This document shows positions 2,789-60,740 of a stretch of DNA of 64,000 nucleotides, one piece after another. The position numbers and the translations under genes were made by a program. Below the pieces are notes generated by a model. That model was not told the DNA's origin. It saw only the letters and a list, made by a program, of their open reading frames with translations, and made no database searches. Where the stretch lies: the NCBI RefSeq assembly GCF_000150275.1, contig NW_002060943.1, forward strand, positions 11,594,878 through 11,658,877, written 5' to 3'. Source of the DNA: Trichoplax adhaerens (taxonomy: Eukaryota > Animalia > Placozoa). The stretch's first letter is position 1. Every line of letters starts with the position of its first letter.

Positions 2789-3466
2789 TTTATTCGCTAA
2801 GAGAATAAAAGCAACATTATTATCGTTGATGTTTAAATTTAACTTCCTGATCAATTGCGAGCTATACTAGATTGATATCATTTCATGAAATTATTCGCAT
2901 TAATCAGATAGTACGTGTGATACTACTCTGTATATAAAATGTATCCTGTGATAAACAAGATATTGGAACCGTTTTCAATTTCAGGCTGATAATTTTCTGT
3001 ACAATTGATATACTGCACAGTGCACAGGTGTACATGTAAATACGTTTATTGCAGTGAAAATCAGGACTTACAACTATTTCGGTTGTATAACAGCCAATAA
3101 TATAGCTTGCTATTACTACAAAATATAGAAATTTTAGATACATGAATTTTAATGATAGTTTTCTTCGACTTTTTATTTTCAGTATCGCAACTTCTATTAT
3201 TTACAGTTAATGTAAATTTATTTATAGAGTATATCTACGGTACTGTAGATCTAGAAGTCCATGATAACACGTATTGTATACCCTTAATTATTATTAATAA
3301 AAATTATTTAAAATATCAAGTGTACAGTACTGCATATTTTATTTATTTTATTAAGGGCGATGGACAACGTTCATATTTCAAGGTTGTTACACTACACACT
3401 ACAGTATACTGGACTGACCATATCAGTCAGGGATATTTAGTGAATATTTTAACGGGCACCACCAGA

Positions 3467-4044
3467 TAGTGCTGTAGACGTCGAGCGATTGGACGTCCAA
3501 CGGACGTTCGATTTTGGACGTTCGGTATGTACGTTCGTTGTCAGATCGGACGTCGACGAACTGTACTGTACAGTGTACAGTGTACAGTACAGTGTATACA
3601 GTCAGTTTGTATAATCCCACCCCAATACTATACAGTACAGTACAGTACTGTACATACAGTACAGTAGTACAAACGTCTTTTACAGTACAACACTTTGTAT
3701 TTCAGAGTCACTACTGTACAGTAGTGCAAACTCCCGTCGCTTTACTGACGGTTTACGATAATGTGCTCATTTAACAGAGGTTCAGTAACTTTATACCGTA
3801 CCGTGTAGACCTGTCAGAGGTTCAGTAACTTTATATCGTGTACTGTGTACAGTACTGTACTGTACTGTAATGTACTGTATGCTGTACTGTACAAATGCAC
3901 GGTTACTGTACAGTACAGTGTACACTATATACTGTAGTGTTAACACTGTACACTGTGTACGTTGGTACGTTCAATGAACGTCCGACGTTCAAATTGGACG
4001 TTCGCACGTTCGTTCATTAAAACTGGCGAACGTCCACAGTACTA
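3467..4044. mobile_element. Non-autonomous hAT-like DNA transposon (MITE), 578 bp
   Basis: Imperfect terminal inverted repeats TAGTGCTGTAGACGT (3467) / ACGTCCACAGTACTA (ends 4044); exact 8-bp flanking direct repeat CCACCAGA (3459-3466 and 4045-4052); clustered subterminal GGACGT/ACGTTC motifs at both ends. Confidence 0.8.
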
Positions 4045-4725
4045 CCACCAGATCTAACAGTACTGTACAGTACAGTACATCATGGATATCAGAGACTACT
4101 GAGAGAGAGAGAGAAGGACGGAAAACTGATTACAGTACTGTACTAACAAACGTCTGGTCCGACCATACTTTACAGTACTGTATACTGTACAGTACAGTAC
4201 TGTACTGTACAGATTCCTACAGTACTGTACTGTACAGTACATCAAAAATACAGTTTATTGCACTGTAGTGTGTACTGTTCTGTACTGTACTGTACTTAGT
4301 ATGAAAAGCTGGCATGATCAACATGGGACGAATCATCATTTTTTCGCATGGTCAAAAGCACTTCGACAAAATGTGGATATCATGTTTTATCATGAGTGCG
4401 AAAGTACCATGGTTTCGACGGCTGGGGAATTTCTGTGTAGAGTAGTCCCTGGCTTTAGTTGTTACATACCGAAATTCGAAGCGTACGATGGAATAGTACA
4501 GAACTGTGCGGTACATGTACAGTACAGTATACTGTAGTACTGTATGGCCTGTAAGTACAAGACTTGCAAGGTTTCGCCTTTTGGAGGAAACCGTATCAAC
4601 GAAAACTTACATACTGTACTGTTCTGTACTGTACTGTACAGAACAGTATACAGTTTTGACTAGAGATAATATACAGTACAGTACTGTACTGTACACTGTA
4701 CAGTACAACTGTGCTCTACTGTAAA
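3560..4725. repeat. (TACAG/CTGTA)n degenerate pentamer microsatellite field upstream of MRPS23
   Basis: Dense tacag/ctgta/tactg runs in both orientations. Confidence 0.9.
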
Positions 4726-16210: not shown

Positions 16211-17287
16211 CAATGTGAAGATCAAAAACAAAATCACTTCAATTACTGTTATTCCATTTCAATAATGTGCTTGCTCGATTTTAAATTAATATCATAGAAT
16301 AATTTTAGTTGAAATCACTAATAGAAGCTGTCTTACACTTGGCTCTCTATCTTACAAAGTATTCACAAAATATTCCACCTTAAAGGCGATCATGAAATTA
16401 ATGTCTTCTTTCAATGGGGAAAAAAGTGAAAATTCACAATCTCTTTGGAGGAAAAAGTGAAAATTCACAATCTCTTTCTATCATAGAGTTGACTCTACAT
16501 TTGCGCTAAAACAATAAGGCACTTCAACCTTGAACAGGCGTGTGCTGTTTGCAACGTCCAAATTAGGGGTGAGTTATCGCATTGTTGATAAGCAATGTGA
16601 AGATCAAAAATAAAATCACTTCAATTACTATTATTCCATTCCAATAATGTGCTTGCTCGATTTCAAATTAATATCATAGAATAATTTTAGTTGAAATCAC
16701 TAATAGAAGCTGTCTTACACTTGGCTCTCTATCTTACAAAGTATTCACAAAATATTCCACCTTAAAGGCGATCATGAAATTAATGTCTTCTTGCAATGAG
16801 GAAAAAAGTGAAAATTCACAATCTCTTTCTATCATAGAGTTGACTCTACATTTGCGCTAAGACAATAAGGCACTTCAACCTTGAACAGGCGTATGCTGTT
16901 TGCAACGTCCAAATTAGGGGGTGAGTTATCGCATTGTTGATAAGCAATGTGAAGATCACTTCAATTACTGTTATTCCATTCCAATAATGCGCTGCTCGAT
17001 TTCAAATTAATATCATAGAATAATTTTAGTTGAAATCACTGATAGAAACTGTCTTACACTTGGCTCTCTATCTTACAAAGTATTCACAAAATATTCCACC
17101 TTAAAGGCGATCATGAAATTAATGTCTTCTTGCAATGGGGAAAAAAGTGAAAATTCACAATCTCTTTCTATCATAAATAGAGTTGACTCTACATTTGCGC
17201 TAAAACAATAAGGCACTTCAACCTTGAACAGGCGTGTGCTGTTTGCAACGTCCAAATTAGGGATGAGTTATCGCATTGTTGATAAGC
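16211..17287. repeat. Three near-identical tandem units of ~345-380 bp (start ~16211, 16593, 16945)
   Basis: Each unit starts caatgtgaagatca and ends gagttatcgcattgttgataag; small indels between copies; unit 1 has an internal ~28-bp duplication (gaaaaaagtgaaaattcacaatctcttt). Confidence 0.95.
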
Positions 17288-17543
17288 TTTGGATGTAGCG
17301 CTGTGAAAGTTGTCGTATCGTTGACGCACGTAATGAATTGGGTTGCTCAGCCAATGAGATTGTGGATATACATAATATAGTATGTATTCTGTGAACGATG
17401 TAGCGTTAGCGTGACGCGTCTGATATCGATCGGCCTATGCGTATTATCAACACTAGCATAGGTTGAATGTTTCATTGGAATGAGACAACATGCAACTTGT
17501 ACGCGTACATCGAAGCGACAATCCGATAACGATAACTCATCCC
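17260..17543. mobile_element. Possible degenerate MITE bounded by a 14-bp inverted repeat
   Basis: GGGATGAGTTATCG (17260-17273) / CGATAACTCATCCC (17530-17543); the left end reads TAGGGATG like hAT termini; no TSD found. Confidence 0.45.
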
Positions 17544-43109: not shown

Positions 43110-43525
43110 TGTACCGTACCGTAACGTACTGGACTGAGTTCCTTACTCCTGACAAGGCACTAGACCTGAGAAAGGGTTCGGCTCGGTTCGGTCCGGTCCG
43201 AACCGTTATGATCTATTGAAGGCACTAAAGTACAGTATGGAAACTAAACTGCACTGTACGAAGTACTGTAAAGTATACAGTAGTACTACAGTATACTGTA
43301 CTGTACGTACTGTACTGTACAGTATGACGTCATGTAATCTGGCCTACAAAGCAATGGCTACAATACCGAGCTACAGTACAGACCTTATAACAATTCTTCT
43401 GGTACAGTGTAAGTACTGTACTGTACTGTACTGTATAGTGTTGACAGAAAAAACTACAGTACTGTACTGTACTGTACCGTAAACAAGGTGAAAATAATGA
43501 CGTTACCGTAAACAGTACAGTACAA
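43110..43525. promoter_or_regulatory. Divergent promoter region between SPNS C and D, with TACAG arrays and a GGTCC/GGTTC pentamer run
   Basis: Head-to-head start codons at 42773 (-) and 43904 (+); tactg/tacag runs; ggttcggctcggttcggtccggtccgaacc at ~43176-43204. Confidence 0.55.
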
Positions 43526-43903
43526 CAATTTCCAAATTGGACCGTGACAGCGGCTCGTGTCGGCTACTATAGATACTGTTACAGGAGTAACAAATGACAT
43601 CTTCTCTATCTTTTAATTGTTGTTACTTTACTTTCTGCTTGGGATTAATTAAATCGATCACTTACTCGATCGGCGTTCTAATTTGGAAAAGTTTAGATGA
43701 AGAAGAAGCCGCTTGGTTTGACAGCGAATAGAATGCATTCTATATGAGCACAAGAACTACATACGTATCTACAACATAATTGAAGATTATCAATTTTCAT
43801 CAGTACTACTGTAGTACTGTCTATCTGGGACAGGTATTTTAAGTGATACAATTAATTATTGTTGAAACTCGTTGAAGGAAAGTTCAAGGAGAAAATCAAG
43901 AAA

Positions 43904-46900
43904 ATGGTGATGACAGCTAGGCAAGCGTATATAACAGTTGGGGTCCTCTTTCTCATCAATCTTTTAAATTACATGGATCGTTACACATTAGCCGGTACTT
44001 CAATATCATTACTGATATTACTACAGCTATCATTCATTGAACAAATTCGGTGCTATTTTATCTTTAACCTTAACTAAAAGCTAGAATTATGGTCAATCAT
44101 GGTGTGATGAACTTCACCAAATATAACTGTTAGGAAACTTTTCACTTCGATGAGCGTAGTCCAAGCGTACAGTACAGTACGACTATCAATGCTGTCCAAA
44201 ATAGCATGCTGTTACACTGTAGTTTACATAGTATTATTATCAATTTACCCGGTCTTCGCTTGAATAAATGATAAGATTAGCTGAAAGCTCAATTAAATTT
44301 ACTGGTTACAGTAGTTGATTTCCACTACCTTCTACCATGGACTACGACATTGTTAGTCCATGATTCTACATAGTACAGGTTACCATGCTTAATTGATATT
44401 ATTAGATTGTTGATGATATGCTCATAAGGATATCACATTATCATCTGATAGCATGATAAGATCAGAAATGGACGTTGTCTTCAATTTTCAATATCTGCTA
44501 AACCAGCTCACTATCCAATAGTACTTCCTCATTCATACTGTAGTCACTGTAGAACGTATATAAAAATAAATAATAAAAATAAATTTCTCTTAACGTATTA
44601 CTACTGTACAATAGGTGTACTTCCGATGATTAAGAAGGCTTTCGGACTTGATTTTGAAGTTGCTGGCCTGCTTCAGACTGTATTCATCGTTAGTTACATG
44701 TCTTTGGCGCCAATATTCGGCTACTTAGGTGATCGCTATAACAGGAAAATTATAATGGGTACTGGAATACTTATTTGGGCTGGGACAACATTAGCTACTT
44801 CTTTTGTTGCTGAAGGCAATAAGGCAAGTTACGATTGAGTCAATCTTGTGCTTTCTTTAACATATACTGTATACAGCGTGCAATATACATCTCTTAAATT
44901 TAAGTTAAACTACATACGCATCCAATGACCACTTTTAAAAGTTTCTGAACTTAACTGACGCCTGACGTATATCTTCACATACCGTAATAGCACTACTTTA
45001 CCATTGTTGTAAAACAATATTTATCGCTACAATTTTAATAGTATGGCTTATTTGTTAGTACAGTAAATTATTATTGCACTATTCGTGATGGCTTTTTATT
45101 AGAAGAAAGATTTAATTGAGTAAATCTCTAAAATTTTTAGAATGTATGGTTAATGCTGATTATTCGTGGATGTGTCGGTATTGGAGAAGCAAGCTATTCT
45201 ACTATCGCACCCACTATTATTGCCGATATGTTTAGCGGTCAGCAAAGAACGAAAATGCTAGCTTTTTTTTATTTCGCCATCCCGGTTGGAAGGTAAGAGT
45301 TAGATATCTACGTAAGATCACGGTATTTCATTTGGAAATGTTGTCAATTTTTGACTTATTGATGTAATAGCGGATTGGGCTATGTTTCTGGTTCACAAAT
45401 CGCAGCAGCAACGAAAAGCTGGAGATGGGCCTTTAGGGTATGCCGTAATTGTACACCTTAAAATATATGTAGTCCTTTAAAATAACGTTTCAATTTGTTA
45501 ACAGATAACTCCAGGGATCGCAGTTGTATTATCAGGGTTTTGTTTCTTTGTAATTACGGACCCTCCTAGAGGTCACTGCGAACAGGTGGCTCAAAATACT
45601 GAAAAGTATGAAGTTAAGGCCACAACTTGGAAAGCTGATATGAAAGCGTTACTTCGAAAGTTAGTAATTCTATTCCATTTAACTTCGATTAGGAAGGGAT
45701 ACAATAGTAAAAGTAAATATTTCATTTTGAAATCTTATCAACTTTCTTTTAAAATTACTGTATATTCAAACGCTGGTGAACTAATGTACCGAATGTACAC
45801 GTATAAAGCAAAACGTATGTTTGGACGACTATTGGCTTCACGTGTGTTGCTTTTACTACCGGTGCGTTAGCGTTTTGGGCACCCACTTATATTACTTCAG
45901 CTGAGTTAGCTCAGGGAATAACGTCTACCAGTAGGTTAGTACCAACTGTATATATTTTCAGTACGTTAACTTTACAGTTATGCTGAGATGTCATCTGATA
46001 TACATGATTAAAAATCCACTGAGTAATAAATTATAATTTTATTGACTTATGTTTTAATTTAATACAGCAAGATTTCAAGTGATTTCGAATTTCTTACAAA
46101 CTTAGTTTTCGAGATTTTTATGTGCATTAATTTTTACTTAATTTATTCTTTAATTAAAGTACTGGTTTGATCTTTGGCGCAATTACATGTGCTGCTGGTA
46201 TTACTGGAGTTCTTATCGGTGCAGAATCTTCAAGAAGATTTAGAAATCGTATACCATATGCTGATGCTATTATATGTGCAGTCGGTTTGCTAGCTTCTGC
46301 TCCATTTGTATATGTTAGTTTATTTTTGGCCGAAGTTAGTTTGCCTCTTGTGTGGGTAAGTGTTTTATAAGTCTTTAGCTTTACAACAGAAGTTTTAGAA
46401 GTTATGTTTGATGCCAATTAGGTACTGATTTTTATTGGTGAAGTTTTAATTAACTTAAATTGGACACCGATAGCAGATATACTACTGGTACGTAGATTAA
46501 AGGATATATTAGTTCCCATGAAAATACTAAAATTTTATTATGCAAATTTGAGAAATAATCTTTATAATAATATAATTTTATTATATTAGTATACTGTTCC
46601 CCCTGCAAGGCGGTCAACAGCGGAAGCATTCCAAATATTATTTTCCCATTTATTTGGGGACGCTGGAAGTCCATATCTAATTGGTGCAGTAAGTAATATC
46701 GTATGCTTATATATTTGAAATCTAGTACTGGTTTTCTAACATATCAGTCACTATTTGATATTTCTATTTGTCAGATTGCTGATTCTATCACAACCAATAA
46801 AGAGCCAGCCTTTCAAGCTTTTGCGCTGAAGTACGCCTTATCAATCACAACTTTTGTATGTGTACTTGGAGGAGCTGGATTTTTGATGGCTTCCTTTTCA

Positions 46901-47017
46901 TTAGAAAAAGACCGTAAGGAAGCTGAGTTTCAAACTGAGCATAATATTAAAAATCAGATTGAAAACTATGATGAAAGTATTCATGACGACGTGAGTATCG
47001 ATGTCAAAATCTGCTAA
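43904..47017 (+). CDS. SPNS1: Spinster-family MFS transporter, paralog D (most canonical, SPNS1-like)
   Basis: [86 protein letters not shown]. Confidence 0.9.
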
Positions 47018-48940
47018 TTGTATTGTCTATTGCATGCATACTGTGCAGGTTCTATTGCTATTGTAATTATATCAATTTAAGTCTTTAATATTTCTGTTAC
47101 TTCTTTAACTTAATAGACTGCACCTATAATCTAATGAAGATAAATCTGGTATTTTGTAAATACTTTTCTTCTAACTACTATCAACTTGTATAAGATCTTG
47201 CAAGTATCGCTGGAGTGTATTGGCGCCTGGCTTACTATTGTAAATTAAAGTGATAGTCTTTTTGGCTGATCTTCCTAGATCAATTCCTTCGTTATGTTTA
47301 TCTAGCGAAATTTATACAGTATCCGTGTATGTTATACCATATACATATTACAGTTATTGATGATGATACCCCGTTAAATTTAATATTGTTATTGCCCTAT
47401 AATAATGAGTATCTTGTTACTATATACTGTAGTTATGTATGATTGCATAGCATTTAAAAGTTTAATACACGCTAACAGAAATTTTAATAGTTTTTATCGA
47501 ATGCATTAATGCATTCTAATTAAAACTTTTACAATGTTGCCTTGCTAGGTACTGATTCGGTACTTTGCGATTGGATATTTTATTATAAGATAAGATGTAT
47601 AGTCATTAAAGAATCACTTGAATTCTTCGATTTAACGATTAGTTGTAATTACCGCTGACAGTTAATACAGAAAGAGCAATTATTGATATTTAACGATAAC
47701 GGTTTTATTTCTGCATACTATAGCTATCTAACCAAGTGATAGTTTAAATTTATAGATATCTATCGCGAAAAATATTCGAAAAATTGAAATCTCAAAGTGT
47801 GATATTCACCCCTGATGCTCGAATAACCGGGAATAAAGTTGAAATTGCAATTTTTATAAATTACTAAAGAGCCAAGCTCTCCATCGCTGCTTGAATCAGA
47901 TTCAGGGCAGTGTGATTTTATCATTATTATTTAATTATACTAGATAACGATTCATAGTAATTTTAGCTGGCTATTGTCCGGCACGTGAAATTAATATTGC
48001 ATTACATCATTATCATAGTAAACGGCCCTGATCTCTGTCGATGTCCCAGATTCTTAGCTGAAAACGTTTAAAGTGATACTGTAATACGGTACTTACTAGA
48101 TCTTATAATTTGTATAACAGTTCTAGCTGTATTTCAGCGTATAATCCAAGACAAAGATTATGGAATGAACTTACAGTACCGTTAAAACAATCTAGCAGAA
48201 AATTATTATGTTACGAATTTGAAAAGTTAGCTGTGATAGTTCTGTCAGCGAAGTGGCTCGACGTTAAGCAAGTAATAATGTCTAAAATTAAAAATCTAAA
48301 ATCTAATCTATTCAGGGATTCAATACCATTAAGTTCATATTTCGTAACCCTAATTAATTAATTAATTAATTACAGTATACCGTACAGTGTACAGTACATT
48401 AGTTACGTTTTGTACAGTACAGTATACTGTACTGTACAGTACAGTACTGTAGCACAGTGTACAGTGTACAGTATACTGTACTGTAGTCCAGTGGACACTG
48501 GACTGTACTTTAAGCAGTCAGGCTAAAACGTCAAAGTGATTTGGCGCTTCTTGGATTTGGGTAAACGCTAGAATAGTCTAGACTGCCATCAGCAAAATCT
48601 TTCAGCCATCTTTACTTATTTCATGTAAGTATAAAAATTTGAATGATGTGAAGATGTTATCGTAGCTAAATTTCTCATTTTTTTTGACCTGGTATTGAAA
48701 TTCTCAGTTCTCATTACATTGCGTTATAATATATTATCCGTGTTGTACCCCATTATATTATGTCTCTAAATTGTACAAAGTAGGAGGTCTAGTATCTATG
48801 TATTAAAAGAAGTATACTTTGAAAACGGTAGATACTTGAATGATTACGAAGTGAAGGACTGTCCCTTTTTGGCATTTTCCCTGTACTCTTTTACTAACGC
48901 ATATATTATTCTTGTAAGCAGCTTAACAGGTTTATCAAAG

Positions 48941-50714
48941 ATGTCCCGTTACAATGAATGTAGAATTTATATTGGCAATTTGCCTTCGGATATAAGAGAA
49001 AGAGATTTAGAGGATTTATTTTATAAGTATGGCAAAATTTTAAGCATCAGCCTGAAAGATAATAGGAGAGGGCCTCCATTTGCTTTCGTCGAATTTGAAG
49101 ATAAGAGGTTAGATTAGTGATGCGTGTGCTACTCTGATGCAATTTTAGGTAGAACTATTACAAATGCAGGACTGACGGATATGTATAAGTTTTATGCAAT
49201 CTTTGAAATTATGATGTAGTTATTAAAGTTTGCAATGAACTTATTGAAAGAAAGTACTATATAATGATCTGTTCCGGAGGTCTGATACAGTACTACGCTA
49301 AGGTTGACTTTCTGCTGGTACTCTCTTGTATTGTAGAATTGAAAATCGCCAAGGAAAGTTTTGTAGTATCAGATGACAATTTTTTATCCATACGTAGAAT
49401 ATTTCTACTATAGTTTTATAAGAATGAACTGATGCAACACGGTTATCCGAATTTCCGCTAGTTGCTGTTTTCACTATTACGATAGAGCTACAGATTTTAT
49501 CAAAGTAATGTGTTCGACTTTGTTTGGTGTCACTTGTGATACTATCTTAAGTGTTATAAATTAGAAGTAGCTCCATTTCGACATTGATTATAACATACTA
49601 AAATCGTGCTCGGATTAGAATGAATATCTGAATTTTTTGGCTATTGTTTGCAATTGCACAATCCTTACTAAGTCGTACTATATTTATAGGGATGCTGAGG
49701 ATGCAATTGATGGCCGAGATGGGTACGACTTTGACGGCTGCAGGTTACGCGTTGAAGCTCCAAGAGGCGGTGGTGGCGGCGGCGGAGATTATGGTCGCCG
49801 TGGCCGTGGTAATGGTAGCGGCGGCGGTAGGGGTCCAGCTAGGCGATCTGACCATCGCGTTATTGTATCAGGGCTACCGCAAACCGGTAGCTGGCAGGAT
49901 TTAAAAGATCACATGCGTGAGGCCGGAGAAGTTTATTTTGCTGACGTTTATCGCGATGGAACTGGGGTCGTCGAATTCGCTCATTATTCGGATGTTAAAT
50001 ATGCATTGAAACATTTAGATGATTCAAAATTTCGCTCTCATGAGGTTAGCGTTTCAAAGGTCTTCTAGCATGACTTTATGTACTATTTTAATTATGTGCA
50101 TATTACGCAAGCTTTCGATGATACTATTAAGTACTACTGATAGGCATTCATATTTAAATTACTGTTCATATCGCTATTGATAGGGTGAAACTTCATACGT
50201 TCGTGTGAAAGAAGATAGAGGTAGAAGTCGGTCACAAAGTCGGCGCCGATCCAGTTCTGGATCTGCTTCATCCCGGCGTAGATCATATTCTAATTCCAGA
50301 TCACCGAAACGTCGATCCCGTTCTAGATCTAAATCTCCTAAGCGGAGATCCAGATCTCCTAGACGTCGATCACATTCTAGATCCAGATCTCCTAGACGTC
50401 GATCGTATTCTAGATCTAGATCTCCTAGGCGTCGATCGTATTCTAGGTCCCGATCTCCTAGACGTCGGTCGTATTCTAGATCCAAATCTCCAAAACGTCG
50501 ATCGTATTCTAAGTCAAAGTCACCTAAACGTCGGTCGTATTCTAGATCGAAGTCACCTAGACGTCGGTCATATTCTAGATCCAGATCACCTAGTCGCCGG
50601 TCTCACTCTAGGTCTCGTTCTCCTAAGGATCGATCAAGATCACGATCAGATTCGAAATCTGGTTCTCGTTCTCGTTCTAAGTCTCACTCGAGATCACGTT
50701 CACCTTCTAAATAA
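48941..50714 (+). CDS. SRSF1: Serine/arginine-rich splicing factor SRSF1/SRSF9-like; exons 48941-49107, 49691-50045, 50184-50714 (probable 5'UTR intron from ~48625)
   Basis: RRM1 ([18 protein letters not shown]), Gly linker, pseudo-RRM with [25 protein letters not shown], long RS domain. Confidence 0.93.
50270..50620 (+). repeat. 33-bp coding minisatellite encoding ([11 protein letters not shown])n in the RS domain
   Basis: Repeated ttctagatccagatctcctagacgtcgatcgta-type units. Confidence 0.85.
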
Positions 50715-52101
50715 TGTAAACCAGCTCCATATTACACCATGTAGATTAAAGAGGACATAAGCATATTATGTAATGATATCTTTTGTAATGTTGTAATAGA
50801 TCACCTTTATCCCTTGTTTTGCTAGTATCTTAAATCAAATTTAATACCATTATATATATAAGTGTTAGGCTATGGCTCCTTGCTGCCGTATCATCTTTAT
50901 GACTGGATTACGGGACGGCTGCTCTGAAATTTTTATTGTATCATCTTAATTACATTATGTTAATATAGTAAACATATCGTAATGTTGTTGATATATTGTT
51001 ACATGAAAATTAGAAAATTTGTATTTCTTTGCCAAATTTGCCAATAACTTGTTACCTTTACTTGTTGAGATTAGGATAGTACACTATAACGTTTGGACGG
51101 ATAAACTGAATGATAGACTTAAGGACCTTTTATATTTGACTTGTGGACTTAGCATGCCTGACTACGATGTGTTGTGCGTTCGTTCATATGTTTAACAAGG
51201 ATGATGGACTTTGTCGCATCATTGGAATGACAATGTCTTATTCGGATAATGATTCGGAAGTAATAATACCGAGTGACATGATCGTACGAGGAATTCAATA
51301 CGTAATCACGTTTTGTTAGTTTATTAGTAGCTTAGGCTAGATAACTACTTATAGTGCGAAGTTTGAATTTATCCATCAGATGTGCAGTCATATGAATTGC
51401 TTTTGAAATGTTTTCAACGTATCACCGGTGTTAGGGATTTGTTTTAAGAGATTTGTGTTGATATCTCTAGCAGATAACTATAAGGATGTTGCAACTAGGA
51501 TGAACACACATGGAGGATTTAGCTAGCATCAGGATACAGTGAAGATTATCGGATTAGTTATGCATTTCATGATTTAAAAGAATAGTGAAACGAATTGTTA
51601 CGATAATCGACGCAATTGGACGTATTCAAGCACGCTTTTAGTTATGGCAGTGCTGTAACATACGACAGCAGGATATGGTAGTACGGGTATTAAGAGATAA
51701 ATTAACCTGCCAGGATTTATGGTAATGTTTGCATGTACGATTTAATTACAATATGCATTTTTGCCACAATAAAACGAATACATCTTCCACAGTAAAGTGG
51801 GGATCATTGTGTGATTTCTATGGAAAACTTAAACCAACAGTAGAGATTTCAAGGATTGCAAATAGAGAAAATTTAATGATAGTTCTATCGTTGATTTACG
51901 TTACTAACACAGTATGTAATTATTGATGTACGAGTATATGCACATCAGTTAAAATCGCAATTTATTTTCGCTTTTATCATAATGATATCGTTACATGGGC
52001 AGAATCAATCATGTCCTCTAAGTAAAAATTTGCATGTACTCTTTCTTAGATAAATTTTCAGTTCGCGTCGCATCAAGGTTAATTGAAATGTACGATTTCC
52101 T

Positions 52102-55085
52102 TCACCGTTTCTGTTCTCCTAAGTCAGTAATGCTGTCGTCGTCAATCTACGAAAATGAAATAAAATGAATTAGTCAAGTAATCCTCTACTTAAATTAGTA
52201 AATAGAATACTGTATGCAAATATTCATGTGCATAAGCAAGTACTGTAATTACTTTGTAAACTGAAACTTTTTATTATCCTAGATAGTAGCGATGCTGAAT
52301 TGGTGCGTGATTATAATTAATTTTACTGGATCATAACGTGATGGTAGTGAAGAGATAGATTTAATATGTTCTATTATGTAAATTGGTGAATGTAAACATA
52401 TGTGTTGCAAAGTGGCAGCAAAAGCTGTGTATTTCTATTGGTTTATAGGATTCATTTTACAATTACCTCTGGCCACTTTTTTTGAATGATATCAATAATA
52501 TTATCAGTTACATCGCCTTGGACAACTATTTCATCATCGCCAGTTACAGAGGAGCCACAGGAAAATTTTTGAGCGAAATACTTTGAAGCTTTCTTTAAAT
52601 CTATTTCTAAGTATAAACGATACGATAATATCACGTTACAATATTAATACTGCAGTTTTTTAATTACTTATGGCTACATACCAAAAGTTTTTAATCCAAC
52701 CACGATAGTTACATACTTTTTCTTACTTCTTTGAGCCAAAGCAATCGTTACTTGTTTTGGCCCACTTGGCTAGAAGTTACATTAAAATATTATGGATAAG
52801 AAAATCCTGCATGTATAATTGATTTATACAATAAATGGAAGGTCAATTATAAGAATATTTAAGAGATACATACTTTCTTTTTATTACGAATTGCTTTACC
52901 CCCTATTTGGTATCATCAAAATTGAGGTAGAAATAAACCGTTTTAGTATAGTGAGGAATTTACTATAAGACTTGATATACAAATGCTAGAGTTATTTAAC
53001 ATACGTGTATAAATATATTATTATCCTCACAACTAGGTATATCAATAGAAAGTCGAAATTTAAAGCTACACATCACGTAATCTTTTTGGTGATCGTGTTA
53101 TAAACTTACTTATCAAGCGCCAAAATATCTTTTAGTAAATTAATACCTTCCACATGTAAAACTTTACATGATTATACAGTATATTTAAACGCAACACTAT
53201 GATAATAATACTGATCTTACATCTTTCCGTCACAATTATTACATAACAATTACTTTATTACCTCTAGTTTGCCTTTTCTTGCTATCAGCAATATCCGCTG
53301 ATTGAAGCTGATCATTTACTACAGTAAATGATAGATTGAATAGATCATCTTAGTATACTTTCAACTCATTCTTTACAAACTGTTTAAAGTTTTACAGATA
53401 GTGCGATAAGAGTATGTGTAATAAGAGTAGTATAAAGCCTACGTTTTGCCATCATATCGTCGTGAACATTTGGTAAACTGCTCTTAAGCCATTCTTTACA
53501 CTTGTCATAGTCAACTCTAAACTCGCAGTACTGCCAAAACAGTTCAATAAGTTTTTATGAATTGCTCAACATAATTTATAGGTATCACGCACTTAATGTA
53601 ACTCTATAATTTAAACACATCTAGCAATAATTACAATACACTTTAAATTATTACCTCTATAGGAAAGGAGCATACTAAAAGTTAAAAGATAAAAAGGATA
53701 TAACATTAATAGAAGCATCACCAACATTTAAATAGTACCTAGTTAATATGCGCATAATGCATAACAAGAATTATGATGCAGTATTTCATTCAGTATTAAG
53801 GGCTGATCACTGTCTACGCTGACAGAAACAGAACTATTTACATTAACGTTCTAGATCTACACCGGTTTAATTATACTTTGCAGGCATAGAAAATCCCGCT
53901 CCTTAGAAATTTGCTGAGTAATGATATACGCGTAAAGATGTCGTATTTACAAAATGATAATTCGTATTCGCTTCATATGATTAATTTGTTACTCTATAGG
54001 GCAATTTTACGGGTATAAAAATCATACGTAGTATCTGTCCTTTACCATAGACTCCTAAAAGAAGACCTGGGCCTAACCCTCTCGTTGTAGCCTTACCGCA
54101 CACAGTACACAATGGTAAGAAACGAGAAAATTTTATTTACACGGAACTTACTGGTTTTTATTTCGTACTATGTTTGGCCTTGGTAGAAAAAATTGGGTAA
54201 GTCTATCTTTACGTGCATTACAGTGTTATGTAGTACTGTATATACACACTATAATTGAGTGATATAATTAAGGTGCGTATGTTACTATGGTCAGACAGGG
54301 ACTACTAGAGAAAGGGAATAATTTTATTTTCCGGTAGTCCTTGCTACGACAAAGATTAAGAGAGAGCTTTCGTAAGGTAGTGCATATTGCCTTAATTGCA
54401 TACGTATACGAATATAGTACCATACTGTACTCGTATAAAGATCTCGACCAGTGATGCTTGAGGCTAAACAGAAATATGATGTACCGTCCTCATAATTTTG
54501 TGTACTAATGTTTCAACTACAGTAGAAATAAAGTGGTTGATTACGTACAATGTTCTATATAGATACTGTCTATATGATACATACATTTTAGGACGGTTAA
54601 TACGTGTATAATTTAATCATTCATTCTCTACCTATTCGGATTGCCTTTGTGCAGAGGACATAGAACTACGAAAGCTAGCCACATTAGCTTAAATTATTTC
54701 GCGTTATATCATAGGAACAGATTGCAAATGTTCTTCATATCTATAGTCAAAGATGCAGAAACTTTGCTGCAAATATTATATGAAAGAAACTCAAGATATC
54801 GATATAATTTGCAATCAGCCTTTGTTTCAGAAATTGAGTGAATATGAAGAGATGATAGCAATTTAGAATTCGTCTACCACTATAAGCTTACTATCTTTAG
54901 ATTATTAAGAGTTTGATGAAATGTGTACCATCGATTATAATAATAGCTTCAGATGATAGCACACATTATTATATGTAAGGCTGTTATTGATATGAGATTA
55001 TAAATTATAATATACCTCCACAATAATGAACTTCTAAAGGGTATGATAATGTCGTATTCTGGGATTCTTCAACACTGGTAGCCAT
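52102..55085 (-). CDS. DENR: Density-regulated protein DENR/Tma22 (SUI1 domain); ~8 exons, intron 1 = 53675-55015
   Basis: [80 protein letters not shown]. Confidence 0.92.
53800..54970 (+). ncRNA. Candidate large structured ncRNA (telomerase-RNA-like) nested antisense in DENR intron 1; ends approximate
   Basis: More than 10 hand-folded helices whose non-Watson-Crick positions are almost all G-U on the + strand; CCTAACCCT at 54072-54080 within a helix-closed domain (54047-54053/54200-54206). Confidence 0.5.
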
Positions 55086-55089
55086 ATCA

Positions 55090-56095
55090 GAATGTTACTC
55101 TACTTTACTTTAGCTGGCAATCTATTTGAAAGTGCCTGCTATAAAATGGTCGAGTATGATCGAGAGCGCATAGCTGCTCTGTAGTCCGTACGAGAGGCAT
55201 CGGTGTTTACGGTATCTCTACGCTCTATAGAAATGCATTACAGTCTGCTTACAGTGTACAGTGTACAGTACAGTATTGTCACGGAGTACTGTACACTGTA
55301 TAGTACAGTACTATACTTGGAGTGATCGGATGACTTGAAACTGCATTGCTTGCTCTGTGCCGTTTCTATACTGTGTACTGTATGCGTATCTAGCATTACG
55401 TACAGTATCCTACAGGCGCAGAGCCGGCTAAGCCGTTTTAACATCTCCAAAACTGTGAATTTATACTCCCCAAGATTTAGACCTTTTATCCTACAGGTGC
55501 ACACTGCACAGCCGTTTTAACATCTCTCAACTGTAGTTTGTATAGTACTCTAAGATTTGGAGCACTATTCTGTACTGTACTGTACTGTACAAACCACAGT
55601 TAGAGTTGCTAAACGGGTTTAATGCTCAGCCGGCTTTGAGCCTTGCTGTTCGCTTAGTTCGGTTCGACTCTGAACTGGACCGGACTGGACTGGACTGGGC
55701 CGAGTCGTGTTAACGTTTCGGAAAGTACGGTACAGTATACTGTACAGTGTACTGTACAGTACAGTACCAGAAGTACTGTACTGTACTGTATCATACGGTA
55801 ATACTGTAGGTCCGGTGTTATGAGGATGATGCAAGCCCATAGTGCAGTATAGTACAGCAGCTGGAGAGCTAACCAGATTCGACTATGCTCGTATGCTGGT
55901 CTTCAGGCGACCTCGTCATTCTCGATAAATATTTGGACTTGAAGAATGGTCTAGCCAATTTGAGCACAATATTAGGGTTATTATGCTGGTATTACTGAAC
56001 TAGATGCTGTACATATTATGGTAAAGAAAGAGAGTTTTTAGATTGACGGTGAAGATCAATTCTTATCAACTGATAGACGTAGAAATTTTAGCTAG
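55090..56095. promoter_or_regulatory. Bidirectional promoter region DENR/COQ5 with TACAG arrays and a GGACT/GGACC run
   Basis: Head-to-head ATGs ~1 kb apart; tacag/ctgta arrays at 55240-55860; actggaccggactggactggactggg at ~55674-55699. Confidence 0.6.
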
Positions 56096-56099
56096 TACA

Positions 56100-58307
56100 A
56101 TGTATGCAAGAGTCGTTGCAAAATTTTATGCAGCAGTAGCAACCAAGCGATGTTCGATAGCTTGTCTAGGTGCTAGTCGTCGTGCTATTCATCAATCTCC
56201 AAGTAATCGTAACGATAGAGATAGCGAGAGAAACACAACCCATTTTGGATTTCAAACGGTTTATGAAGATGAAAAAGAAGTTAAAGGTCTGTATGATGTT
56301 ACGTCGTGTAAGAAATCGATTTAGAATTGTTCTACTGTAGTTTTCTAGACTGCAGAGTAAAATGGTGATTTGCACAAATGCTTTGATAGCCAATGCAGAT
56401 TTAGTCTTTGAAGTTAAAGTATAGTGTTGAACTGAAAATGATTCTTAAGAGCTATATCAAATTGACTATTTGCTATACGGTTTCAAATTGTGTCCAATGT
56501 AATAAATGCTTTCACATCTTTCATTTTTGTAAAACATATCATAGTGGCCGAGGTATTTCATAACGTGGCAAATAAATATGACCTGATGAATGATGCGATG
56601 AGCTTTGGTATTCATAGACTCTGGAAAGATACATTTGTTCGCCAGTTAAATTTACAGTCTGGATTAAATATAGTTGATGTTGGAGGTGGAACAGGTAAAG
56701 TGAAGTAATTTCTTTCTTCTAAAAATCCTATTATTGTAGATGATCAGTAATTTACACTCATAATAATATGCAGAAATAGTTGTAAACTCTTTGAGATCAA
56801 AAAAGTAAACATACCTGTATTATAGATTTATCGCAGTATTATTTATATCTACACAAGAGAATATATTGAAATTAAATTCGTATATGGGATAGACACTGTT
56901 TTCATGCATTTCTTTGCATTAAGCTACTAAAATTATATAGATACAATTATCATTCTTTTGATTACATATTTGTAGGTGACATATCGTTTCGGATTTTAAA
57001 ATACATGAACATTCGTAATAGCCAAAGAGTAAAGAATTCAATGGATAAAAACACGCAAGAGAATATACCAAATTGTGCAATAAGTGTTATAGATATTAAT
57101 CAATCGATGCTGGATGTAGGAAAAACGCGTGGAAAGGAATTAGGCTACCAAGGTGGTAATAAAGTAACACTGTAACTATGTTCAATAGATTAAGACTCTT
57201 GCCTGTAACATTTAATTGCAGATTTCCATTTTTCAGATGTAGTTAACATGATAGAGTATACTCAACTTAAAGAACACTATCATAAACTGTAGAAGAATTT
57301 CACTTACTTTTGCACTAGACGAAGTTGTATCAATATTGAAGAGTTAGATTGATTGAATGTACACACTCGAATATGTACAGTCACAGGTTATTTCTTTTGT
57401 ATGTAATCACCCGCAATAGCAAAATTTTATACAAAAAACCTGTTCTTTTGCAATTCATCTTGCTAAAATCCGCTGTTAAAACGTAATGCACCTCATCGTT
57501 TGTATTGAGAATTAATGTATGCTTGATGTGTGTATGCGCCATGATATTATGAAATGGCAAGTGTATGCACAATTGCTATTTTTTATACTACTAGCTAATT
57601 ATCAAATACCAATCTGATGCTGATAAATTTCTACTGTAGATATAAAATGGATTAAAGGAGATGCTGAAAATCTCCCGGTGAAGGATTCTTCTGCAGATTT
57701 AGTTACTGCTGCATTTGCTATAAGAAATGTAACTAATATCCGCAAGGTACGTATTTACAAACAACGAAATACGTACTTATTAATATACTGTATTAAACTT
57801 GATAAATTATACCATATTTAATTTGCTATTTATGAAAATTGAGAAGTATCTAATACATAGTTCATTAGGAATTGCTTTTGATATTACGTCAGATCGGACT
57901 TAAATGTGCTAAATTGCTTGTATATTATTTGCAGGCAATCTCGGAGGCTTACCGCATTTTAACTCCAGGTGGTCGATTTTCAGTTTTAGAATTTAGCCAT
58001 GTTACGAATCCATACTTAAAGAGGTGAGGCAGCACACGGTATTAGATAATTATTAAATAAGCTGATCTCTATCTTGAACGGACTATTTTACAGCTTATAT
58101 GATACATATTCATTTGAAATGATTCCTGTGATGGGAGAGATAATTGCTGAAGATTGGAAATCGTATCAATATTTGGTAGAAAGTATAAGGCAGTTTCCTA
58201 CACAAAGTGAATTTGCAGATATGTTTAAGCAAGCTGGATTTAGATTTGTAAGATTTCAAAATCTTACTTTCGGAACAGTCGCTATTCATTCTGGATTTAA
58301 AATATAG
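56100..58307 (+). CDS. COQ5: Mitochondrial ubiquinone biosynthesis C-methyltransferase COQ5 (UbiE family); exons ~56100-56286, 56545-56694, 56976-57152, 57641-57746, 57935-58023, 58094-58307
   Basis: [36 protein letters not shown] motif [35 protein letters not shown]; basic N-terminal transit peptide. Confidence 0.95.
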
Positions 58308-60392
58308 TAATTTTTGTCATTTTATTTAGCTAACGGTATTAATATTGAATTGGTATCATTTTATGGCATTAGTCAGGCTTATTTCGCCTTATATTTATAA
58401 GGTGTGATTTTTGCTACGATACTAAGTAAGATAAGCCAATTTAGTTCTTGAGCTACTACTGACGTATAGCTAATAAATATAATTGGATAGATATTTATGT
58501 TATGTAATTTCTTATAGATAATGAGTCTATTTTAGGTGTTATTTCTACTATAAATATTATAATAGGCAATGCTTCGTTGTATTCTAGACAAGAAAATTAA
58601 TCCAGACATTTGAAGATTAAAATCTTTTGTATGAATTATGAATGAGTAAATGACATTCTGTAATATTAAAGGTTAAGCAGCTACTTCCATGACGACAAGA
58701 ATCAAATATTTCAATTTCAGCTAGTATTGCAGAAGTTCATACGCGGCATTTCGAAAACACCTAACCTCTGTATTTTAATTAAAATTGTTGTTCACTTTAG
58801 TAAATTACTGAAACCTTTGCTCTGATGCTTCCCCAAGGTAATAACATTTATACCTACTTTCGTAATTGCCAATGCTATTATGAAGCGGTTTTATTACAAA
58901 AATTACGTAATCATCCTTTAATTTAATTAGTACCAAATCGATCTAGTGGTACGTCAGCTACTGCTAGTAAGAGAATAGGGCATTTTATCTTCTTTACTGA
59001 AGGACTTTTTCATCTTGGAAACATATGATATCGTATTATTACGTATAACTTAATTATTTGATATTAAACTACTCGTGCAGCTTGTGCTAGTCATGAAATC
59101 TCGAGGTGTATTAATTAATATTTCAGACCTAAAATGCTACTTGCTTCTTAATAGTTCAGTATGCTGATAACTGTACATAATATGCTTTAAGAGTAAGTAA
59201 GAGAAAGAAACGGTAAAGTTACTGCTCCTTTTGTTGGTTTCCAGATGCTATATGACGCACTTAAGATAATTCTTTACAATATGTTGACGTTTTCACCTAT
59301 GATTCATCACACAATATGTGATCTTATGGTATGTAGAAGATGGCAATATTCGAGTTCTTCGTTCTCGAGGTTCAATTGCTCAATTTAATAGTTTACGCTG
59401 TAAAAGTCTCAAGAATTTCGAAGTGATTATATAAGAATTAAGTATTTTAGTTCCATTTTTTTCATAAAAGTCCTTGCTTATGTTATTTTGAATATTTCGG
59501 CTGCGTTCACTACTGTGGTCGATCATGATCAGATTAACTAACTTAGTGTGGAATCTTCTTGGCTGGACTTGTCGAGTATCATTTGGATAGTATGAGAAAC
59601 GAAGCACAAGTTAAGCCATTCTACCGAATCTGATCTTGCGATCGTTAGAGCTTCTAGCACGTATAGTACTATAGCCGAAGTACCTCATGAATTACTCCTG
59701 ATCAACCCAACTGAATATATTGAACGGTGTCAAGTCTACTTTATGCATATACCTTACTACCTCGATGTAAAGTAAGGAGTAACGAAATATAAACGTTGAA
59801 ATGTATTAACTATAAACGTGCATGTATTCTGTCATTTATAGTCGATGAGACAATCAATATTTAACATACACATGATATTATTCAGGTGAGATAACGTAAG
59901 AATTTTACGATTCTGAAGATTTATAATGCATTACAATAACGGTGCTTTGTTGACTAAAAATTATGGTTATAAAATTGTTGAGATAGATCAGTGAAACGAT
60001 TATCAAATAAGGAAATGCTTTAGTTGCAATTAGGCTTGAAAAGATCCGTTAATTTTTTATTGAAGTAGATACAGTAAAGTTACAATCATCAATTTGAATG
60101 GCATGTACCGTATAGTACAATCTTCGATCAGCCATCAATTCATAAGAGTTCCAATATTAGTGATATTAAAACGCTAATAGGCACCACAGATTACATTCTT
60201 AAACATTCGAGCTCTATTAATGAATGATTTCTTACATGAAATTATGCCAAGTTTTTACAACTTGCAATATCGAAATGCAGTAACGGAGTTAGAATAAAAT
60301 AAGCGTACTATGCCTAGGCATATATTCACAGTCCAATTAAACTAGTTACAATCTTACTCCAAAACAAGTATAATGTTTGAGCTGGTAATAGC

Positions 60393-60740
<348 letters not shown>

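Follow-up and report, generated by a model that had tools for sequence, protein, structure and literature searches.

The stretch of Trichoplax adhaerens DNA that had been proposed to hold a telomerase RNA, antisense in the first intron of DENR, appears on balance to be an ordinary long first intron that is spliced from the DENR pre-mRNA and is not a separate RNA gene. Within the 64,000-nt stretch that was analysed (the window), the intron bounds were located exactly, helix counts that include G-U pairs were at chance level, telomerase-RNA features were missing, and the presumed template carried a variant. A discrete transcript from the intron seems to be lacking. The helices are likely to be mostly chance pairings of AT-rich sequence rich in short palindromes, and would have been picked out because the best-folding non-repeat stretch of the 64 kb had been chosen. 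The RNA contigs over the intron could be nascent pre-mRNA or excised intron, the template-like 9-mer could be a chance match, and the intron may have a role as DNA close to the promoter of the head-to-head genes DENR and COQ5. An ordinary intron, if this is one, matters little.

The main competing explanation is a structured, non-polyadenylated RNA peculiar to placozoans, about 1.1 kb long (about 53785-54880), whose transcription would start at a Pol II promoter of its own within the intron and run antisense to DENR; this explanation is possible but doubtful. The ends of such an RNA would pair into a long closing helix (Table 1) and its branched fold would act as a protein scaffold, possibly in place of an RNA, e.g. 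7SK, that has so far escaped detection in placozoans.

Table 1. Features of DENR intron 1 and adjoining exons (window positions)
Feature	Position	Strand	Basis
DENR intron 1, GT-AG	53675..55015, 1341 nt	-	exact skip by spliced contig, run X12
DENR exon 1, coding part	55016..55085, ATG at 55085	-	translation
DENR exon 2, 20 nt	53655..53674	-	splice joints in contigs
CCUAACCCU, template-like 9-mer, polymorphic at 54076	54072..54080	+	contig variant in X11
Unspliced contig span, two recorded random-primed RNA runs (X11 and X14)	54011..54914		strandless contigs
Strongest-folding part	54200..54600	both strands (predicted)	z -3.15 (+), -2.45 (-), 100 shuffles
End-to-end helix, 5' arm, predicted (10+11 bp), not in the original list of helices	53785..53807	+	p 0.90-0.94
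End-to-end helix, 3' arm, predicted	54814..54842	+	whole-intron fold

The DENR gene and its first intron

DENR lies on the minus strand between an SR-protein gene and COQ5, to which it is arranged head to head, and was recognised by the Pfam domains DENR_N (E 2.9e-8) and SUI1 (E 1.2e-12). Its 5' UTR extends to at least 55160. The length of 1341 nt originally claimed for intron 1 was borne out by a spliced contig that omits exactly 53675-55015. The other introns had been put at about 70-330 nt and measured 75-359 nt; they are indeed much shorter, although one slightly exceeds 330 nt. Intron 1 is both the longest and the first of the DENR introns. It had been said to contain no meaningful ORF, and at the curated cut-off none of its seven ORFs matched a Pfam family. 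The GC content of the window is 32.9%. A DENR micro-exon of 15 nt (52874-52888, minus strand) was present in spliced contigs of runs X12 and X14.

Known systems for comparison are long first introns close to a promoter, and intronic RNAs that are stable. The DENR intron resembles them in being the longest and first intron of its gene and in appearing unspliced in random-primed RNA, but it folds somewhat above genomic background and has a weak antisense lean. In metagenomes, the last DENR coding exon used as query led to six loci with 52-81% identity; the intron resembled none of them (best blastn E 0.29). The DENR locus of another animal (L003) has no intron at the position of intron 1, which agrees with an ordinary intron. 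No homologue turned up when the first COQ5 exon was used as query. The literature searched held no description of this locus, the structure-screen loci in the supplements of PMC2655684 lying outside that scope. No intron-length figure for the Trichoplax genome was found in the available parts of PMC6067683, and 'DENR' is absent from the main text of PMC8480181.

Folding strength and natural variants

All 13 helices listed in the original prediction were complementary at their coordinates, two of them with bulges, but as defined they were not above chance. When G-U pairs were allowed, 327 local helices of at least 6 bp were present on the plus strand compared with 327.6 in shuffled sequences, and 77 helices of at least 9 bp at any range compared with 84. 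Counts on the minus strand were similar, and this equality with shuffles on both strands favours an ordinary intron. The G-U positions had been taken as a sign of a plus-strand transcript. This argument fails, as the minus strand bears equally long G-U helices of its own; it was rejected as circular, because the plus-strand G-U positions follow from the way in which the helices were chosen. Nor was a single structure confirmed for the listed helices, the two long-range pairings (53876-86/54642-56 and 53907-16/54856-64) crossing each other. When the whole intron was folded at 25°C, the plus-strand ensemble held only 6 of the 13 at p>0.5. For the 3' hairpin the minus strand gives the better form (13 bp, 54967-54955/54932-54920, p 0.88).

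The intron nevertheless contains a modest excess of structure, and this excess is real. Pure Watson-Crick local helices of at least 7 bp numbered 23, compared with 12-13 in shuffled sequences; the observed number was reached in none of 60 shuffles and matched by 1 of 40 other repeat-poor tiles (7 of 52 when repeat tiles were included). This hairpin excess speaks against an ordinary intron. An exact 11-nt direct repeat is present at 54850-54860 and 54951-54961, with a spacing of 101 nt.

Folding against shuffles on both strands, proposed earlier as a check, gave a divided result. Compared with 20 shuffles, the whole-length minimum free energy had a z of -2.7 on the plus strand and -2.4 on the minus strand. 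With a pair span of at most 150 nt the plus-strand z rose to -1.4, a value undercut by 8 of 23 other tiles (24 of 53 tiles were run). The whole-length plus-strand fold beat its own shuffles by 24.5 kcal/mol, the largest excess among 28 repeat-poor tiles (of 44, with three shuffles each) and followed by 20.1 and 17.9 kcal/mol. This top rank is partly expected, because the region had been picked for its folding. For positions 53780-54880 z was -3.7 on the plus strand and -1.7 on the minus strand, with bounds picked afterwards from the plus-strand fold. The tile ranking and this strand difference argue for an antisense RNA and against an ordinary intron; the low local-span z and the end-to-end duplex, which was equally strong in 11 of 100 shuffles, argue the other way. 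On both strands the strongest-folding part (Table 1) is predicted to contain the hairpins 54296-54343 and 54405-54437 and a branched arm at 54483-54597. Stronger local folding was seen in the repeat-poor tiles 46774-47944 (z -4.9, plus strand) and 16328-17498 (z -5.0, minus strand), each with 8 shuffles.

Natural variants disrupted fewer plus-strand pairs than random variants of the same type, with P 0.013-0.033 for 15 variants and 0.042-0.094 for 12, and disrupted more minus-strand pairs than expected. The test used three boundaries and two temperatures and excluded indels; the smaller set omits three variants from single contigs of depth below 5, which the larger set keeps. The sparing of plus-strand pairs was lost when the fold began at 54000 (P 0.67-0.84). 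The best-folding part is covered by a 558-nt gap that is free of substitutions (P 0.019 if haplotype blocks are disregarded), and a 4-base insertion at 54300 in run X1 retains 9 of the 11 pairs of the strongest hairpin. The spared pairs and the gap favour an antisense RNA over an ordinary intron, the former with the dependence on boundaries just given. Among the signals for such an RNA, the variant tests are the only ones independent of the original choice of region. Together with the folding asymmetry of 53780-54880 they lean weakly to the plus strand. Taken over its full length, the intron varies at least as much as the surrounding sequence: 12 substitutions occur in its 1341 nt, compared with 7 listed in 52000-53674 (8.9 and 4.2 per kb), and substitutions that are not depleted agree with an ordinary intron.

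RNA contigs and alternative explanations

Coverage was taken from assembled contigs of eight among 21 listed sequencing runs, which carry no strand, ends or level. In the mRNA-rich runs X8 and X12 the depth of intron 1 was 2-9, similar to that of the other introns (7-15 and 7-8), while exons reached about 75-235. In X11 a single contig of 863 nt covered 54011-54865 at depth 7.3, compared with 9.8 for spliced DENR mRNA, and the DENR introns of 320 and 359 nt were uncovered, which is not readily expected of an ordinary intron. The X14 contig (54355-54914) had a depth of 5.1, and this run also contained pieces of other unspliced DENR introns, at depths of 2.7-4.3, as expected if intron 1 is an ordinary intron. 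X11 and X14 come from one study. Both leave 53812-53962 uncovered, which counts against an antisense RNA of the proposed extent but at such depths proves nothing. X15 covers the intron body alone and ends at 54902, which would be unusual for an ordinary intron; its status as RNA is a guess, and it was not counted as RNA evidence, as promoter-proximal chromatin DNA would look alike. Cover in X19 was patchy at depth 2.5. The random-primed contigs hint weakly at a non-polyadenylated RNA, and pre-mRNA would account for them almost as well. In the DNA-like run X1 the intron had the depth of a single-copy sequence (95-162, compared with thousands for nearby repeats).

The proposed antisense RNA draws some further support from the intron-body contigs, which end at 54865 (X11), 54914 (X14) and 54902 (X15), although these contigs are strandless, have depths of 4-10, and come from one study for both recorded RNA runs. 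The plus strand contains seven internal runs of 4-5 T, none after 54589, which points to Pol II rather than Pol III. At 53718-53735 on the plus strand, about 60 nt before the predicted closing helix, a sequence loosely similar to the vertebrate PSE of snRNA genes was noted by eye and set aside.

Covariance models of metazoan telomerase RNA, RNase P/MRP and H/ACA RNAs, also suggested earlier as a check, gave no match: Rfam yielded none at E<=10 in the intron and none at gathering score in the window (RNase P/MRP, SRP RNA and snRNAs included), and ARAGORN found nothing. The missing Rfam match agrees with an ordinary intron and counts against an antisense RNA.

7SK is a Pol III transcript that ends in a U-tract, has no internal terminators, and carries a paired GAUC/GAUC stem that binds HEXIM. 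The candidate resembles it in its predicted end-to-end closing helix. As judged by these features it differs from 7SK in being much longer, in its internal U4-U5 runs and in having neither a terminal hairpin plus U-tract nor an Rfam match. GATC occurs at 53805, 53854 and 54440 only, and no two of these sites pair with each other in the fold, which also weighs against an antisense RNA in the role of 7SK. On these features an identity as 7SK is not supported. In the Trichoplax genome RNase P, MRP, SRP RNA, snRNAs and some snoRNAs were found, while 7SK, Y, vault, U7 and telomerase RNA were not, according to the available parts of PMC2655684; those of PMC10848712 mention evidence for 7SK in Trichoplax. 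The missing 7SK, Y, vault and U7 RNAs leave room for the proposed antisense RNA (PMC2655684, in part). That the intron contains an undescribed 1.1-kb antisense RNA under selection for its fold, as either a large ncRNA of a new kind or a strongly altered version of an RNA still missing in non-bilaterian animals, is tentative. If real, it would join the handful of large structured RNAs known from animals outside Bilateria, and would be a testable candidate for roles whose RNAs went unfound in Trichoplax (PMC2655684, in part).

Genes for translation factors are common hosts of snoRNAs. It is nevertheless improbable that the DENR intron gives rise to a stable RNA of the sense strand, or to an H/ACA-like RNA by processing. 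Two weak H/ACA-like units were found, on the minus strand only, one of them ending in ACA (54482-54480) right after an 8-bp helix; a 13-bp hairpin lies near the 5' end of the intron on the same strand, and the RNA contigs fit either strand. The units have no CAB loop and weak energies (-10 to -12 kcal/mol), and the scan had no shuffle control. No Rfam snoRNA matched, and variants break minus-strand pairs more often than expected. The 8-bp helix (54597-54480, minus strand) is G+C-rich and, with ACA directly after it on the sense strand, H/ACA-like, but has a three-way junction.

The length of the intron might also derive from an old, decayed non-autonomous DNA transposon, the closing helix being its worn terminal inverted repeats. 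The arms are imperfectly inverted, with the same three bases on either flank, and the intron position is missing in L003, but the duplex and the 3-base flank are at chance level, the X1 depth is that of single-copy DNA and the window holds no second copy; this origin is very improbable.

The claim that gave the region its name, a telomerase RNA (TR), was not supported. A validated TR elsewhere in the genome had been named as counter-evidence, and one exists as a prediction: the available parts of PMC8480181 place a Trichoplax adhaerens TR of 397 nt and different sequence at ABGP01000509.1:21534-21930, with a 12-nt template, a U-rich/A-rich pseudoknot, CR4/5, an H box, CAB and ACA, and report no functional test of it. 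Both template-containing motifs of this TR were absent from the window, and two shorter motifs gave isolated chance hits. The same parts of PMC8480181 state that P6.1 is kept in all basal-animal TRs, and give templates of 10-12 nt among the basal-animal rows and TR lengths of 900-2425 nt in fungi and 312-559 nt in vertebrates. The candidate's length fits fungal but not vertebrate TRs; it is about three times longer than the predicted Trichoplax TR, and its 9-nt template would be shorter and is polymorphic. No canonical P6.1 or clear H/ACA pair had been recognised originally, and in our scan the plus strand likewise contained no P6.1-like hairpin and no H-hairpin-ACA unit; one P6.1-like hairpin was found on the minus strand. 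CAB is missing as well. Three pseudoknot candidates on the plus strand, the total found in a scan run with no shuffle control, are minimal (8-9 bp); that of the predicted Trichoplax TR is clear.

The 9-mer itself was found as claimed. It is a valid 1.5-repeat template, C-rich and unpaired in the plus-strand minimum free energy structure, and the likeness to a metazoan TR lies in its position within a single-stranded stretch of a branched fold. Such 9-mers occur 3 times in the window compared with 1.8 expected, as would suit an ordinary intron; one was present in 2.7% of 300 shuffled versions of the region, which favours a TR. An exact 22-nt pattern around it had no match in the genome contig collection. 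The 9-mer is not invariant, as a template should be: the X11 contig (depth 7.3) reads A54076C and C54101T, while X5 and X8 match the window at 54076. X1 contigs stop at 54075 and resume at 54102, which we infer to be a two-allele bubble. A54076C would alter the repeat written if CCUAACCCU were the template. It does not strictly refute this role, because a template variant has persisted in a human family, according to the available parts of PMC11144197. A second or true TR with CCUAACCCU as its template, which would have overturned the published placozoan prediction, is the most improbable of the explanations considered.

Neighbouring genes and repeats

Genes for an SR protein, DENR, COQ5 and dynein light chain are clustered at 48770-60740. 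In L003 (2906-5200) DENR adjoins genes for dynein light chain and a UPF0203 (TRIAP1-type) protein. In humans, SRSF9, DYNLL1, COQ5 and TRIAP1 lie next to one another on 12q24, a band that also holds DENR. The cluster of SR-protein, DENR, COQ5 and dynein light chain genes is possibly an ancient gene block.

A palindromic GTAC-rich repeat of high copy number fills the bidirectional promoter region of DENR and COQ5 (55171-55925), and its summed X1 depth reaches about 30,000. The repeat folds far more strongly than the intron candidate (z to -6.5) and gave weak microRNA matches; similar copies lie near 3447-4617 and 43261-44431. The window also contains a large pecanex exon. Named relatives among the matches listed align to it over its whole length at about 30-34%.
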